Source: Camelus dromedarius
Taxonomy: Eukaryota
Length of the DNA: 64,000 nt
Assembly: GCF_036321535.1 (NCBI RefSeq)
Contig: NC_087436.1
Span: forward strand, 21,826,001 to 21,890,000
Reading direction: 5' to 3'
The notes under the pieces were generated by a model. The model made no database searches and had not been told where the DNA came from. It was given only the letters and a program-made list of their open reading frames with translations. Below are positions 4,279-59,613 of the stretch, piece after piece (the first letter of the stretch is position 1; the number at the start of each line of letters is the position of its first letter). The position numbers and the translations under genes were made by a program.

Positions 4279-5013
4279 GAAAAACAAATCAAAACTACAA
4301 TGAGATATCACTTCACGGCAGTCAGAATGGCCATCATTAAAAAGTCCACAAACGGTAAGTGCCAGAGAGGGAGTGGAGAAAAGGGAACCCTCCTACACTG
4401 TTGATGGGAATGTAATTTGGTGTAGGCACAATGGAAAACAGTATGGAGGTTCCTTTAAAAAGTAAGAACAGACTTACCATATGATCCAACAATCCCACTC
4501 CTGGGCATATATCTGAAGAAAACTCCAATTCAAAAAGATACATGCACCTCAGTGTTTATAGCAGCACTATTTACAACAGCCAAGACATGGAAACTACTTA
4601 AATGTCCATCGACAGATGACTGGATAGAGAAGATGTGGTATATATAGACAATGGAATGTTATTCAACCATAAAATAGAATGAAATAATGCCATTTGCAAC
4701 AACATGGATGGACCTGGAAATTGTCATACTAAGTGAAGTAAGCCAGAAAGAAAGAAAAATACCATATGATAACACTTATATGTGGAGTCTAAAATATGAT
4801 ACAAACGAACTTATTTATGAAACAGAAACAGACTCAGACATAGAAAACAAACTTATGGTTACCAAAGGGAAAGGGCAGTGGGGAGGGCTAAATTAAGAGT
4901 TTGGGATTAGCAGATACAAACTACTGTATATAAGATAGATAAACAACAAGGTCCTACTGTATAGCACAGAGAACTATATTCAATATCTTGTAATAAATGT
5001 AATAGAAAAGAAA
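4279..5013 (+). mobile_element. 5'-truncated L1 (ORF2 C-terminus plus partial 3'UTR), artiodactyl-type, with 16-bp TSD
   Basis: ORF2 C-terminal peptides [21 protein letters not shown] and MPFATTWMDLEIVILSEVSQ; TSD AAAAATGTATCTCATG at 4263-4278 and 5014-5029, preceded by TT. Confidence 0.92.
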
Positions 5014-5129
5014 AAAAATGTATCTCATGTATGGATGTGTGGCAGGTAACTTTCCTTTCATTAACCTTTTCTGTATCTTATTACATTGTCAGATTTCCTT
5101 TATACTTGGTCTTCTTTTTTTTGGAGAAA

Positions 5130-36271: not shown

Positions 36272-37775
36272 ACACAGAGCGACAGTGGAGCCCAGAGGGT
36301 CCTGCTATGACCTCGGAAGTCCACTAATATTTCTTGAGCGCCTGCTGTCTTTCAGGCATTGTCCTAGGCACTGGGTTTACAATAGAGACAAGCCAGAGAC
36401 TGATTTTGAGAGAAATGGGAGGAAAATTACAAGGTATTAAGAAAGGAAAGAGTAGTTCCAAGGTACAGGAGGTTTATAAATCCCTCATATATCAGAATGT
36501 TGGCATCACAAAAGGAGATGCTTTTCTTGTTTAGACCATTTATATAATCATGTTGGTTTGTAATCCCTGTTTTCTCCAAACTCATTGCAATGTTGAAGGT
36601 GTGATATTTCCGGGGAGGTAAGAGGAATGACTGCCCTTTGACTGGCTTTTGCCTTATCTAAGGAGGTCAATGAAGGGGAGAAGTGCGGATAATCCTGGCA
36701 GGAAACTCCGGAAGGAAATATCTGCCTTTATTTTAAGGAAATCTGATGGGCAGGGCAGCAGTCACTGCGCTGTTTATAATTAGAAGGCAACAGGCCCTCA
36801 GGGAGGTGATTCTTTCATTCATCCCAAAACAAAACAAAATGAAATTCACAAAACCTCTCAAATGCTTGCCTGTGCCCTGAAGATATAGCAGTAAATAGTC
36901 AGGTAATGGGAAGTGTCTGGTGGGGAGTGCCTGAGGTTCTGTGCTGATGCCTGGGGCATGCTCCATGCTGTCCTGGTCTGCAGAGGGGGCTGTGGCCATT
37001 CGTACCCTAGAGCAGAAACCATGTTTTCCATTCATGTTGAAAACAGATTTTCAAATAACTGAGGGCAGTAATGGAGGGTCCTTTTCTTCCCTTTGTCCCT
37101 AGCAGGGTATATGAATTGAAATCACCTGATCCTGAAAGCTAATATGTGTTCTTAAAAAAAAGATGTATATCTTCTCTATAAATTGTTGTCTTCTCTATGA
37201 TTATTCTGTAGAACAAAACTGATATCATGTGCAGAAAAAGAGTAAGTCTTTATACAGAGGCTTAACATATTATTAGCTCTTAACTTTTTTATTGAAGTAT
37301 AGTCAGTTTACAGTGTGTCAGTTTCTGGTGTACAGCATAGTGGTTCTTTTATATATACATCCCTTTTCATATTCTTTTTCATTATGGGCTATTACAAGGT
37401 ATTGAATATAGTTCTCTGTGCTATACAGTAGGACCTTGTTGCTTATATGTTTTATATATAGTAGTTAATATTTGCAAATCTTGAACTCCCAATTTATCTC
37501 TTTCGTCTCTCCCCCTCTCCATAACCATGTTTGTGTATTATGTCTGTGGATCTGTTTCTGTTCTGTAGATGAGTTCATGAGTGTCTTCTTTTTTCTTTTT
37601 TTAGATTCCACAGGTAAGTGATATCATATGATATTTTTCTTTCTCTTTCTGGCTTACTTCATTTAGAATGACAATCTCCAGGTCCATCCATGTTGCTCAA
37701 AATGGCATTATTTTATTCTTTTTTATGGCTGAGTAGTATCCCATTGTATAAATATACCACATCTTCTCTATCCAG

Positions 37776-38190
37776 TGTCGGTGTCGCGATACCATGTACA
37801 CATATACGCTATATGCGGAGAGAGCTGATGGCTGCTCTGAAGCTTTATTAAGTTGCACAGTCTTATATAACAAAGAAGAATGACAAGGGAAATGGTTAAC
37901 AGGCAGCATTTGGCTCAAGGTCAGAAGACCCTTTATGTTTTGGTAAATCATGTTCCTGTTGGCAACAGCGAGCCTTACAGCTTATCAGGGCAGAACGTAT
38001 GAGAAACGGCTGCTTTACAACATTCTTCCTGGACTCAGGCAGCTGTGCCTGTCTTAGGTTGCCCCCCTCTGGGGATTTTACCCGTCCTTGGCTAACCAGC
38101 ATTCTCACCTCTGAGTCTGCATCTTTTTAGAACTTGTTTACCATTCCGGCCCAAGACTCGTTCCTTGGTTCCCACAGTCGGGGGCCTACA
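37776..38190 (-). mobile_element. Solo LTR, class II (betaretrovirus/ERVK-like), 415 bp
   Basis: TG...CA termini; perfect 6-bp TSD ATCCAG (37770-37775, 38191-38196); minus-strand TATA (37863-37870) followed 13 nt later by AATAAA (37844-37849). Confidence 0.9.
38042..38092 (-). other. Half-CTE-like RNA export motif (NXF1/TAP-binding loop) within the LTR
   Basis: Minus strand GCCAAGGACGGGTAAAATCCCCAGAGGGGGGCAACCTAAGACAGGCACAGC versus recalled MPMV CTE core CCAATGACGGGTAA...CAACCTAAGACAGGCGCAGC. Confidence 0.7.
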
Positions 38191-40687
38191 ATCCAGTCAT
38201 CTGTCGATGGACACTGAGATTGTTTTCACGTCTTGGGTATTGTGTATAGTGCTGCTATGAACATTAGGGTGCATGTTTTGTATAGAGACATCGGAAAAAA
38301 AACAACTTCAGAGTTTGCTAGTTTTTATTTTGGATCAGATTGGCAGACCAGAATCTGATGTACATTCTCTAGAGATCAAGAGATTTCAATACCAGACCAA
38401 TGCTGGTGCCAGGCTTTATGTCAGCTAGGACTGAAACACTTTGAAAATGTGAAGCTACATCATAGACATATAAACACACACATGACAATTTATAAAAGCT
38501 TTGTATTAGTTTAACCAAATAGAGAGTGTTCAGAGTGCACAGTAATAAAAAAGCTACCACTGTAGCCTTTAGTATAGTTTATTTATTTACTTACATAGAC
38601 TCAATTTTATGGCTAGTTTTATTTTTAAATAAAGTGCTTATCTGCTTTTTATGTATTTCCAAAATATCCAACAAGGAAAGGGAATGATGAAATGAACTGT
38701 TGGAAATCTACAAGGTGGAATTTGTACAGTATTAAAGGTTGTGTTTTTCCCTTTTGTTTTTTTTATTTTTTATTCTTATTGAAGGGCATGGGGATATACT
38801 CATGCCAAAATGTCAAGTAAAAAAATCAGGATATAATACTATATTTTTATTATAATACCATATGTGTAAGAAGGAAAAGAATATTACAAAATATAACATT
38901 TGTTAGTAATCTTGTTACTATGTTATATAGATTTTATTTTTTTATTTTTTGTTTATATTTTTAGATTTCCCAATTCTTTTACACTGATAGTACAGTCTCT
39001 TATAATAAGAAGAAAAGATTAGAATTTAAAAACATTTTTAGTCATCTTTTTCTTTGTGTTTTAAAGCATTTGCCTCTGATTTTCACTTAAAAGACTTATA
39101 CTTGTACCACAGATAGTTGAAACTGTCTATTTCAGGGCTTCTCATTTTATAATTTGATCTGAGTTCAGAGTAAACTGATTTCAACATTCTTTCTCTAATG
39201 AAACAGAAATATTGCCAGCAGCTTCCTCATGGAATTTTAGCACTTTCAAGGCTAGAATGTTGCATGTGAAAAAGATTGAAAAATTCCTTTAGGCAAACAG
39301 TCTTAAGATCCAAAATATTTGAAAATATGTATTTGAACAGCTGTGTCTTAATCTGATGTTTTTAAATTGTATAGCTCTTCTTGATGCAGGAAGTTTGTCT
39401 CAGTCTTTTTTTTTTTTTTTTTTTTTTTAATAGAGTAATGGTTATTTCCAGAACAAATTTACTATGGAGTTAGGGCACTTGTTTTTCAACCTACAGACTC
39501 TGTGAAAGGGAGTCAGCACCTCGCTTGGTGGTACTTTAATTGCTCTTGCCTGTTACAGCTCCTGGTGTTCCAGAAAAGGGCTCAGGAGCCTTAGAGACAG
39601 ACAGTAGATATTTTACCACAGTGAATACAATTTGTTAATGACTAATTTTTAAATGACACTTATCATAATATTCACTGAGTTTCCCCAAAGGAAAGATGCT
39701 TGCAGATAAAAGGATTTGTGTATCAACAAGTCTGCTTTTGAAACCTGCTGGCAGTTACCTTCCAGAATTTAATTCTATCTTAGGGGGAATGATTTTGTTT
39801 AGGATAAAGGGGGCTTCTGAGTGGCTTGAGGAATCATTCAAGTGAAAAACTACCTAGGTTCTCTGTCATCTAAATGTGTACGTTCATCTCAATTATTCTT
39901 TCTTCTGACATTGTCTGAAAAGCCTATGAAAGTGCCTGTGAAATGTTTAAGAACCAACTGTAGCCTCCTCAAAGCCCTGACCCCACTACATGTCTGCATC
40001 ATTGACTGACAGAGTTTTCCCCGTGCAGAATCATAGAATCTGCAGGGCATATGGGAAGGTCTTTTCAAGAAATCAGATCTCTCTTAATTTGGACATTCAG
40101 GAAGATACAAATCATTAGGAGATTCCACAAGTTCTGGTATAAATAGTCCTTGAATTGGAGTGAGTCCCGATCTATTTGGGAAAACCAGGGCAATGAATTT
40201 ACTCTCTCTGGTGTCTGGTACATGGTGATATTATGAGGGCTGATGACATGATGTATTTCCTCTAACTCAACACTTGGTTTCCAATAATGGAAACTTTTAA
40301 TGAATGAACAGTGGCTTTGGAGCCCAGCAGGAAAAGGTGTTGCTTGTTTGAAGGTAACTGAGGTGACATTAATTTTGGAGGCCGGAACAAAAAGCAGAAA
40401 ATAATGCCCTTTAATCTGTGCGGTGTGAAGCCTGCAGGGATATGAGATACGGTACAAACTCAGTCCCTACTTTATTGGTTTCCGCTTTACATCGAAGAGC
40501 TGCAGGGGCAAGCTTGCTGCTTTAGCTGGTGGCAGAGAGGCCATGTGCTGAAGATCGTGGTGATTTTAAAACCTGCACAGTCTTTGAAACTTGGTGGCTT
40601 GGATAAATCCCAACTGGCTTTATTGTAGTTATTAAACTACGAGTGTCTGAAGAACTATGGAGGAAGAGAGAATTTATTTTCAGCACT

Positions 40688-56560: not shown

Positions 56561-59432
56561 TACATTTACTGAGTATCTGTTTAACGCTCGCCAGTCATTC
56601 ACTGAAAACTGACTAAGTGCCAACCGTGAGACTCGCAAACGTGGAAGGTGAGTGAATATTATCCCCTCCCGTTGTTTAATAGAGAAGAGAGGTTCGGGCA
56701 CAGGGAGTGTAAGCATCTGGTCGAAGGTCAGAAAGTTCACAAGAGGCGGAGTTGGAACATTCTCACCTGGATAAAAAATTCCATACTTAAAAAAATCCTC
56801 AAATTACTAAATCCTTGCTTATTTATCTGTCCTACAAGGAGCAGAGAGAGTCCTTCTCTGTAAATAATAATCACATACAGATTTCTCACTGACTCATGCT
56901 TTTGCCAGAATATAGTGTTGTGGTTGTGAGAAGCGATGTTGTATTTTGATAACTTTCCATCAGCTCCTGAATGTTGCTAAGAGGTTTAGCGCCATTGCTA
57001 CGCCAGCATCAGCATAACTTCTCACTTATTCCTGGAGGAACCCTCAGGAGGGGAGATGCCCCAGAGCTTGTCTGCACAGGTGTACTTTGCTCTCAGGCCT
57101 GCCCGGGAGCCACATATGCACCAGTGCCCAGCACCTCTCAGGAGACTTGACATTGCATCATTTCCCTACAACTCCACCTGCTGAGCAGCATTTCATAGTT
57201 TTATGTGCCAGTTGCATAGAGCTTTTTAGATCTAATTGAATTCAACAACAGGGCAGTATGACAGGCCATCTTCAAAGACAGGAAGGGCTTTGGAAAGAGA
57301 AGGTAAAATTAATGGGACCTACTACTGACCACCCAAGAAAATGAAATCTTCAGTGTTGATGGCTATGAAGCAGTAATATGTAGCTGAAGAATGTAGGAAA
57401 TAGCTAGATATTTCTCAGTTTATTTTAACAGTCCTGATATAAACCAGAAAAGCAACTTACACTCATTCAGTGTAATTCAATTCAATTGAATTATTCAATT
57501 CAGTTAAATACTGAATGCTTTCTCTATATCAGGCACTATTAAGCACATATTTATCAACATTAAAAGTACCACTTGGCTGAAATACAGGTTTATGTTTTCT
57601 TTAGCTAATTGGTATTCTCTTTACTTTTGGCATAATCTGGTTTGAAGTAACTTTTTGCCATTCCTTTGCCAAAACCCTCAAAGTACCCCTTTATTTAATT
57701 CCGTGACTATTATCTTACTTTTACAGTTGTTGAGCTAATACTTTGAATCCCTAGAAAGGTGTGAAACAACATTTCTTTGATTTTTTTTTATTACAAGGAG
57801 ATAATTATGCTAAATATGCAAGAATTTATAAAGACTGAGCACATTTGATGAGAATGGAGTGTTATTATTAAATAAAACTCACAACAAAGGTGTTTATGGC
57901 TATGTATAATCATTATTGGCCTACTGTTAATCGGTATATGTGAATAACGGTGAGCTATTTTATTTTACATAACCAAATCAAACAGTGCTCAGGTTAACCA
58001 GGTTGTAAAGGTGTAGGGTCAAAATAAAAATCAGAAACAGGAAGAGAGAAAAAATGAGGAAGATGGGAGCAGGGTGGATTGAAGCTTTTCTGAATGCAAA
58101 ATAGGTTTCCAACTGGCTGTGTCAAGGGCCCCGCCATCTCCTCCCCTTCCCCTTCTACCCAGCCTTTCAGTCTTCCATTTCTGGGAGACAGCAAAGGACT
58201 GAGTGAGGACTCCCAGAAATCTTTGGGTGGGTGGGAAAGGGCTGGTGAAAAGAAAAAAAAATTTAATGGGACCCATGTTAAAAATAGGAGGGTAATTACA
58301 AGGTGCGACTTTAGAATAAGAGAGATCTGATGAGGGATTTTTGGTTGTCATAGGTTGAAGAGAAATGTCTTCCTTCAAGGGTGGTTGTGCATGTGATGAG
58401 ATGTAGGAAAGAGAAATGAAGCCTGGAAGGAAAAGAGAATGAAGTACAGTTCATTAACAGTTAGGTTGCCTGTGCTGCGTGTACGCTACAGGTGGTGAAA
58501 TCTATGATTAAGGGTTCATTAGAGGTCTTTAAAAGCATTTATTTATATGCAGGAATGTTGAAACAACATATATATTGTTTGAAAATTGCTAATACCCTTC
58601 TTCTTCTTTTAAATGGAGTTTAAAATGGCTTATTCCTAGAGCATCTTCTGGGTTCCCTACCAAGTTTAAAATCAACTTAGATCCTGTCTGCCTTCATGTG
58701 ACTTACAGTCAGTTGCAGGGCACTGAGTCTTCCCCCAACTCAAATCAGCTCTAAATTACTTTCGCCAAACTTTCAATTTGTATTTTATCCCTCTTCCTTC
58801 CACTTAGAGTACTTTTAGAAATGTTACCTCTATTACTTCCTAATTAAAAACACGATTTGCAGTAAAATGTTATTTATTTAATTTTCATAATGCATTGAAG
58901 ATTTTCAGTGGAGAAAGGAACAAGTGTAATAAGGGCTCTGAGTTAATTTTCAGATGAGTATTCAGGGATTAAAAAAAGAGAGAGGGAGAGAAAAGTCCGG
59001 GGCTCCTGGGATGTGGCTGTTTAGTAAGACAACATATTATTAATGTCATTGAAAATTGGTTCATTATTTGGTACGAAATGAAATACATAAAGAAGACATT
59101 TGGTTTCTTTCTGTTCTTACACAGACACCAAAAAAAAAATGATGTGATTTCTTTAGTATACAGTATAGTTCTCCATAGGGAGTTACAAATTTATTTTTTC
59201 TTAGTTTTGTTCCCTACATTTTCCTACTTTTTTTTTTTTTTTTGGATAAGAGGATCTAATTGACTCTTATACCTAGCTACTCACTCAAAATAATAAATCG
59301 TATTTTGGAGGAGTGGGAAGAAAAATAACATTGATTTTATTTTCTTACCTAGATATTTTCTATATACAGAATGTTTTTGTATGAAAAGTGGTATTTTTAT
59401 ATATATATATATATGTATATATATGAAGTTCT

Positions 59433-59461
59433 CTGATGAAGAAAACAGTGATTAGATCCAC

Positions 59462-59497
<36 letters not shown>

Positions 59498-59613
59498 TAT
59501 GTATTTATTTATTTGATATTTTGAGCTGATTTTAGTTGGGGGAAGACTCAATATCCTGTAGTTGACTATATCTATTATACATATATAGTGGATCTAATCA
59601 CTGTATTCATCAG
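59433..59613. repeat. Long inverted repeat enclosing a (TA)n tract
   Basis: ACAGTGATTAGATCCACTATATAT (59445-59468) and ATATATAGTGGATCTAATCACTGT (59581-59604), plus outer CTGATGAA/TTCATCAG. Confidence 0.9.

Follow-up and report, generated by a model that had tools for sequence, protein, structure and literature searches.

A single-loop transport element in the U3 of a camel endogenous retrovirus family has its closest relative in an intron of host NXF1

The stretch of dromedary DNA considered here (64,000 nucleotides of Camelus dromedarius, contig NC_087436.1 of assembly GCF_036321535.1, positions 21,826,001 to 21,890,000; "the window") contains a solo long terminal repeat (LTR) with a single-loop constitutive transport element (CTE) in its unique 3' region (U3). 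Sequence comparison confirms this element as a real CTE of the family that includes the CTE in an intron of the host gene NXF1 and those of type-D retroviruses (simian retrovirus, SRV, and Mason-Pfizer monkey virus, MPMV). By alignment its closest relative is the host NXF1 intron CTE, not the MPMV/SRV element. We interpret it as probably descended from the retained-intron CTE of NXF1, captured by a betaretrovirus-like ancestor and kept in U3. The LTR, its parts and the repeat that it interrupts lie on the minus strand and are given in window positions; the genome searched comprises 2.31 Gb in 171 contigs.

The whole module (38043..38106) is homologous to the NXF1 intron CTE, with 56 identities, seven mismatches and five gap columns in a local alignment whose score of 69 compares with a maximum of 29 in 200 shuffles. 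The letters, strand and positions of its loop (38092-38047) are those given by an earlier sequence-only reading. GCC (38092-38090) forms the 5' strand of the outer stem and is followed by AAGGAC (38084..38089), the 5' strand of a 6x6 internal loop, which varies among natural CTEs, and by GGGT (38083-38080), the 5' strand of the upper stem. A four-base bulge above the internal loop (38076..38079) leads to an apical 5-bp stem with a short loop (38062..38075). The returning strand comprises ACCT (38059-38056) of the upper stem, AAGACA (38050..38055) of the internal loop, which corresponds to the NXF1-binding signature (PMC4330393) and is the predicted binding site, and GGC (38049-38047) of the outer stem. 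Positions 38042..38045 form the 3' strand of a basal stem, paired with 38097-38100.

Exact matches to the core pattern number 416 genome-wide, many of them within arrays, compared with none for a reversed control. A pattern derived from the window also matched three viral contigs, taken to be SRV/MPMV, in which a CTE precedes the 3' LTR. The window agrees with these type-D elements in 20 of 22 bases of the outermost 5' arm and in 19 of 20 of the outermost 3' arm; the local scores are 34-35, where shuffles reached at most 28-32. The reality of the CTE is thus founded on homology (the NXF1 score, the type-D arms and the 416 core matches) and not on folding energy. The arm matches lend modest backing to the sequence-only reading, which had likened the element to one arm of the MPMV/SRV CTE; that architecture is present, but as a full monomer rather than a shortened arm, and one far nearer to the NXF1 intron CTE. 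The Rfam scan suggested in the same reading returned no window match at the gathering score and no CTE family, only two unrelated weak matches (E 5.1 and 8.1).

The host element was found through an NXF gene on contig C12 (Pfam match PF09162), an exon of which matches human NXF1 (PDB 3rw6, E 3e-19). The next exon starts about 1.8 kb on, which gives the length of the host intron, and this intron (locus L127) carries a single-loop CTE; human NXF1 intron 10 measures 1801 nt (PMC4338338). LTR copies fall into group A (~415 bp, including the window copy), group B (~410-460 bp) and group C/D (~605-800 bp), as judged from the copies fetched. The NXF1 stretch common to them is L127:895-963. The best group-B units agree with it in 60 of 66 bases (E 1.7e-17), the window copy in 50 of 60 (blastn, 38043-38100). 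Searched against the genome, an NXF1 73-mer gave at least 296 matches (40 scored of 350 candidates), the best non-self match being 91% identical over query positions 3-68 (E 2.2e-15).

This closeness extends beyond the invariant core. Seventeen LTR units, picked by hand across the LTR groups and compared with the core excluded, have a mean identity of 0.73 (0.67-0.82) to NXF1. The corresponding values are 0.27-0.39 for six SRV/MPMV units and 0.35-0.49 when eleven metagenome units are compared. In the outer flanks taken separately, identity is 0.78 to NXF1 and 0.50-0.62 to type-D elements, and the local scores of six LTRs are 69-92 against NXF1 and 33-43 against SRV. The apex of group B has letters in common with NXF1, paired in a shifted register, and when trimmed to 68-71 nt NXF1 and three LTR units adopt a single shared minimum-energy fold. 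With the cellular intron-10 CTE, itself a single loop of 94-96 nt, the LTR module shares the 6x6 loop with AAGACA, its orientation, the bulge, the 5-bp apical stem and the basal stem, and the best-matching LTR copies are 83-91% identical to it over 60-68 nt. The LTR module differs in its location in a retroviral U3, its hundreds of copies, its lack of the host outer helix and its shorter apical loop. Because mammals are reported to have conserved the host element, and fish to possess it as well (PMC4338338), the direction of transfer would be from host to virus. Single-loop CTEs were also seen in a non-LTR, intron-like context at L097:490-545 and L124:490-545, possibly NXF1 introns of other vertebrates. 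Five clustered NXF-family RNA-binding-domain loci lie at C37:37.50-37.86 Mb; they are of two kinds (two loci and three loci) with identical scores.

The type-D element resembles the LTR module in the invariant core arms, the bulge and the place near the 3' end of the genomic RNA. It consists, however, of two units folded crosswise upstream of the polypurine tract (crossed fold -52.4, local fold -40.1 kcal/mol), whereas the window LTR has one loop instead of two in 2-fold symmetry, and has it in U3 instead of between env and the polypurine tract. The orientation of the loop-B type with a 14-40 nt spacer is absent from the genome, with one match compared with 20 for the control. A looser pattern run on viral contigs gave 41 loci, of which 38 were judged to be chance by a scripted look at the 5' loop; the other three were the same type-D contigs.

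Scanning of metagenomes gave 51 loci, of which visual inspection accepted 24 as real CTE units and put 27 down to chance (eight fully examined). Mammalian-looking contigs among them carry twin CTE monomers before a polypurine tract; these metagenome units are paired, lie outside the LTR and have non-core identities of 0.35-0.53 to NXF1, in contrast to the camel LTR family with its module in U3. Six such contigs (L081, L091, L092, L113, L125, L084) are 3' ends of retroelements of several distinct families with one or two monomers before a purine tract; L084, a chimeric contig, has loop and apex letters in common with NXF1. We presume the metagenome contigs to be like intracisternal A-particles (IAP), an assignment for which Pfam did not confirm env. 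A CTE-like element of the mouse IAP was reportedly described by Tabernero in 1997. Together with the Tap-binding motifs reported from bat betaretroviral ERVs (endogenous retroviruses; PMC3621094), it parallels the LTR module as a sequence-related CTE in endogenous class II elements. Export elements within LTR sequence are likewise described for HERV-K (an endogenous retrovirus of humans), whose Rec-responsive element (RcRE) lies in U3, and for the simian SERV-K/MER11 CTE, which was gained by recombination. By their descriptions both stand apart from the LTR module: the RcRE requires the viral Rec protein, and the SERV-K/MER11 CTE is ~1 kb long and is not known to act by any particular pathway (PMC11379458).

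The solo LTR itself (37776..38190, 415 bp) has TG...CA ends and is directly adjoined by two 6-bp copies of the target-site duplication CTGGAT, the 5' copy at 38191..38196 and the 3' copy at 37770..37775. Downstream of the CTE follow the TATA-like box of the LTR promoter (37863..37869) and, about 200 nt away, the polyadenylation signal AATAAA (37844..37849); because the CTE lies upstream of both, it is placed in U3. These landmarks together with the homology bear out the claim of the sequence-only reading that a solo LTR carries a CTE-family loop in its U3. The insertion split an older interspersed repeat (37286..38276) whose joined flanks align at 76% to window positions 4540-5023, and which we take to be an L1 3' end. 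Elsewhere in the window, two inverted repeat pairs lie around an AT-rich simple-repeat block: 58704-58756 with 59518-59570 (83%) and 59437-59473 with 59576-59612 (92%).

Relatives of the window LTR are numerous: out of 492 candidates 40 were scored, and 39 of these are further copies with 91-93% identity. Its sister copies include a primer site, dUTPase and protease. At L068 and L039 the dUTPase lies upstream of the protease, which is a betaretrovirus-like trait, and the best structure match of the dUTPase and protease frames is 2d4l (E 6e-26), presumably of MPMV origin. The 3' end of one group-B provirus (L067) has a PF00517 envelope (E 1.3e-16; weak surface-protein matches to 9nnd and 9mla), then a purine tract, then the LTR; no CTE was found in the 460 nt upstream of this 3' LTR. 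On sequence grounds, the parent of the window LTR is a betaretrovirus-like (class II) element with the CTE loop in U3. The two LTR pairs seen are spaced 4.0-4.5 kb apart, and both proviruses are therefore internally deleted. Betaretrovirus-like ERVs typically have a 6-bp target duplication and a lysine-tRNA primer site. Target duplications in this family are 6 bp in the window and in most C copies, and 5 bp in most A and B copies. Directly after the 5' LTR of L009, L030, L039 and L068 stands a primer site beginning TGGTGACCCC, which we take, as an unconfirmed assignment, to be of the tryptophan-tRNA type, unusual for a betaretrovirus-like element; the dUTPase begins within a few hundred bases of it, so that gag is largely missing. 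A pattern search for the primer tRNA gave no match, the pattern being unsuited because tRNA genes do not encode the CCA end. For comparison, 410-679 ERV2 elements are reported in four camelid genomes (PMC8605555).

Groups A and B can be aligned only over the module (~65 nt, 84-90%) and the R/U5 end of the LTR (R, terminal repeat; U5, unique 5' region), while their internal sequences are 85% identical over 781 nt. The collection of copies, a step the sequence-only reading had recommended, revealed that the loop is conserved and that apical pair 4 is compensated between the two groups: of 32 A copies examined, 22 were parsed and 19 of these have C-G, and all six B copies have U-A. Pair 1 is U-G, U-A or C-G depending on the LTR group. 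The apical stem thus covaries between LTR groups in the sequences compared, through few independent events. C/D LTRs contain an A-type U3 segment within different LTR ends, which suggests that the U3 module moved between ERV lineages. D-type LTRs (L075:381-660 and C/D-type) show an A-type U3 start and segment in different ends and have mostly 6-bp duplications, compared with 5 bp in A and B. The C/D-type U5 ends at L043, L075, L175 and L176 carry a short duplication around a primer-site-like stretch, and in L176 the LTR end motif occurs twice, with a longer primer-like stretch in between.

The module has also been multiplied. Head-to-tail junctions occur 277 times genome-wide and not once for the control. 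Four arrays of a 103-bp unit hold 8.4, 23.5, 24.3 and 11.3 copies (overall 8-24 units); the 103-bp arrays begin at the 5' end of a B-type LTR, and one of the three longer arrays, as well as a second one, runs on into truncated LTR sequence (blastn). The three longer arrays represent one insertion copied with its surroundings, since the left flank is common to all three. In B monomers a direct repeat of 28-35 bp, with its copies 103 bp apart, flanks the module and is the likely seed of unequal exchange. A second 103-bp unit, unrelated to the first, is doubled in D-type LTRs and stands at two insertions, L075 with its own target duplication and L169-L172 with different common flanks; L172 has 12 units. 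Dimers at these independent sites are 93% identical over 777 nt, which implies that doubling preceded integration. The long arrays arose after integration. For the natural dimer, folds as two hairpins (-79.8 kcal/mol) and as a crossed structure (-79.4 kcal/mol) are near equal. CTE minisatellites with the 103-bp period were found at L052-L054, L072-L074 and L172, and further arrays on C11, C26, C29, C30 and C32 and on the unplaced contigs C73, C133, C135, C154 and C166; several sit close to the end of a contig or within a duplicated block, and the unit number differs among copies of one insertion. Zolotukhin in 2001 is said to have described a TAP-binding minisatellite of tandem repeats carrying NXF1-binding loops. 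In the camel the unit is 103 bp and holds a whole monomer, and the array derives from the LTR, not the reverse.

A 51-nt piece of the window copy folds as the sequence-only reading had drawn it (-15.5 kcal/mol), but with its natural flanks the outer stem is predicted to be open (pair probability 0.00-0.02 compared with 0.93-0.95 for NXF1); both stems are predicted above 0.5 in context for the NXF1 CTE and not for the window copy. The latter departs from nearly all sister copies at 38101, 38077 and 38041. The base at 38077, within the bulge, occurs in none of the 28 group-A sister copies (selected on the LTR's 3' part, as 30 loci minus the window and one duplicate), and the near-private base 38041 falls in a predicted rival hairpin. 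Among these 28 copies AAGACA is kept in 25, consistent with the earlier claim that the LTR family carries the loop, and the bulge AAGA in 22. Their mean pairwise identity, however, is 0.924 in the CTE core and 0.936 in the LTR overall, and without CpG columns the mismatch rate is 0.056 in the core and 0.036 elsewhere in the LTR. The 28 copies thus give no sign of purifying selection on the CTE after insertion, a trait that would mark co-option by the host. Non-CpG divergence is 3.8% among A copies and 2.9% between the members of one LTR pair. At 1.5-2.5 substitutions per site in a billion years this suggests an age of ~6-13 million years for the A copies, which are the window's nearest, so that the family as a whole may go back further. 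The copy in the window resembles a passenger that has decayed, and nothing about it points to a role in the host.

Several observations weigh against descent from NXF1 through a capture into U3, or against its details. The 51-nt fold is no better than chance (z -1.66; 16 of 200 shuffles equally good), folding energy exceeds that of shuffles in only one of four monomers (NXF1 and three LTR units), and the copies with both stems predicted above 0.5 in context number only 9 of 21 for group A (parsed copies), 5 of 6 for group B and 9 of 15 for C/D. The compensated apical pair amounts to one event between two groups. A 70-column tree of 35 units gives no resolved placement and is not used as support; in it NXF1 groups with the metagenome unit L084 and not with camelid units, and approximately unbiased (AU) tests reject no grouping (LTR with NXF1, p 0.38; LTR with SRV, p 0.29; LTR with all viral units, p 0.28). 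The absence of a CTE before the polypurine tract was read from one proviral 3' end (L067). C/D internal sequence was not found at the four candidate loci L173-L176, where L173 and L174 proved unrelated, L175 is a C-type LTR lacking a primer site and L176 a distant relative. Finally, a single loop is weak in reporters (PMC6478720), so that the virus may have used other signals.

The strongest alternative is that all sequence-related viral CTEs go back to one old acquisition, with the monomer kept in this family and its closeness to NXF1 explained by strong constraint on its stems rather than by recent descent. The 94-nt NXF1 region is reported to be conserved in most of 36 mammals, so non-core positions can be constrained (PMC4338338). 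The outer flanks of SRV still match at 0.50-0.62, the module persisted in groups A and B while the remaining U3 became unalignable, and the failure of the tree to reject any grouping is compatible with such an origin. We nevertheless regard it as rather unlikely: the apex letters that group B shares with NXF1, being in a shifted pairing register, are not demanded by structure alone, and other viral elements were seen before the polypurine tract while that of the LTR family is in U3. From the sequence comparisons it is plausible that this family made a capture of its own, apart from that of the type-D viruses, with the reservation that constraint could mimic recency.

The sequence-only reading had gone further and proposed that solo LTRs are dispersed export signals for intron-retaining host RNAs transcribed through them in the sense direction, possibly ending at the LTR poly(A) signal. 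Transcription of a solo LTR starts downstream of U3. As the U3 lies upstream of the LTR's own transcription start, only sense read-through RNA would carry the loop. The core is kept in hundreds of copies with the poly(A) signal nearby, the arrays hold 8-24 loops and multimers are reported to raise activity (PMC6478720), and in mice Nxf1 alleles are reported to modify six of seven sense intronic IAP insertions (PMC2674570). Against this stand the lack of purifying selection after insertion, with a core no better conserved than the LTR overall, the weakness of a single loop and the predicted misfolding of the window copy. No host exon was recognised among the 76 scanned of 101 window frames of at least 75 aa (one sub-threshold match; short exons would escape). 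Six RNA sequencing runs contain only 0.05-0.13 of the LTR words, compared with 0.46-0.54 in 14 DNA-type or untyped runs from three organisms. A host export role is accordingly improbable.

Derivation from a two-loop type-D CTE by loss of the inner half and relocation to U3 is more improbable still. The outermost arms match as described, but the apex and flanks of the LTR are far nearer to NXF1 than to any SRV unit, the six LTRs score lower against SRV than against NXF1, and the parent envelope is of PF00517 type, while type-D viruses are reported to carry a gamma-like env (PMC11379458). Chance or convergent likeness of a short purine-rich motif, to which the unexceptional fold and the independent origin of short AAGACA loops in gammaretroviral pol (PMC4174252) might have pointed, is refuted by the NXF1 alignments (60/66, E 1.7e-17), the genome-wide 73-mer matches and the shuffle control (69 against 29).

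Under the preferred reading of descent from NXF1, a betaretrovirus-like ancestor would have taken up ~66 nt of the NXF1 intron, most simply by recombination with co-packaged intron-retaining NXF1 RNA. A capture from host NXF1 followed by duplication has been hypothesised before, in a source that reports finding no CTE of homologous sequence in any gene but those of the NXF family (PMC4338338). In genomic RNA as in env RNA the captured module would occur a single time, after the polypurine tract and ahead of the poly(A) signal, and would fold into basal stem, 6x6 loop, bulge and apical stem. By homology it may recruit NXF1:NXT1 directly and so promote export of unspliced RNA. Each CTE lobe is reported to bind NXF1:NXT1 independently, with a dimeric platform that fits the two-lobed element (PMC4330390, PMC4330393), and the activity measured in reporters was 3-fold with one NXF1 CTE and 33-fold with two (PMC6478720). 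The U3 monomer may thus have been of modest help to the virus, raised by doubling, and selection would have acted on the module while the virus replicated. One lineage doubled a 103-bp unit and spread as a dimer; once inserted, the copies underwent neutral decay, and a few grew into minisatellite arrays.

Homologous CTEs in other endogenous elements are already known, and the new part appears to be an LTR family with a captured host monomer and natural doubling. The literature searched described no CTE in camelid LTRs, nor a viral monomer so near to NXF1, nor arrays of this type; the LTR families may well be catalogued in repeat databases. For the window copy alone this is of little importance. 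A wider reading of these sequences, to which we give slightly less than an even chance, is that a camelid-infecting betaretrovirus-like lineage captured the NXF1 CTE independently of type-D viruses, placed it in U3 and re-ran a doubling of the MPMV type. One genome would then contain the donor together with the captured monomer, a dimer that has transposed, and arrays in the host with as many as 24 loops predicted to bind NXF1. If so, some arrays could serve as strong export or NXF1-sponge RNAs if transcribed. Apart from that wider reading, the LTR family looks like the intermediate expected under capture and later duplication: its viral monomers reach 91% identity to the NXF1 intron CTE, and natural dimers and longer arrays stand beside them. 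An LTR module with a predicted export function has here seeded minisatellites. The capture-then-duplicate model becomes testable with natural sequences, which provide a natural dose series for NXF1 binding.
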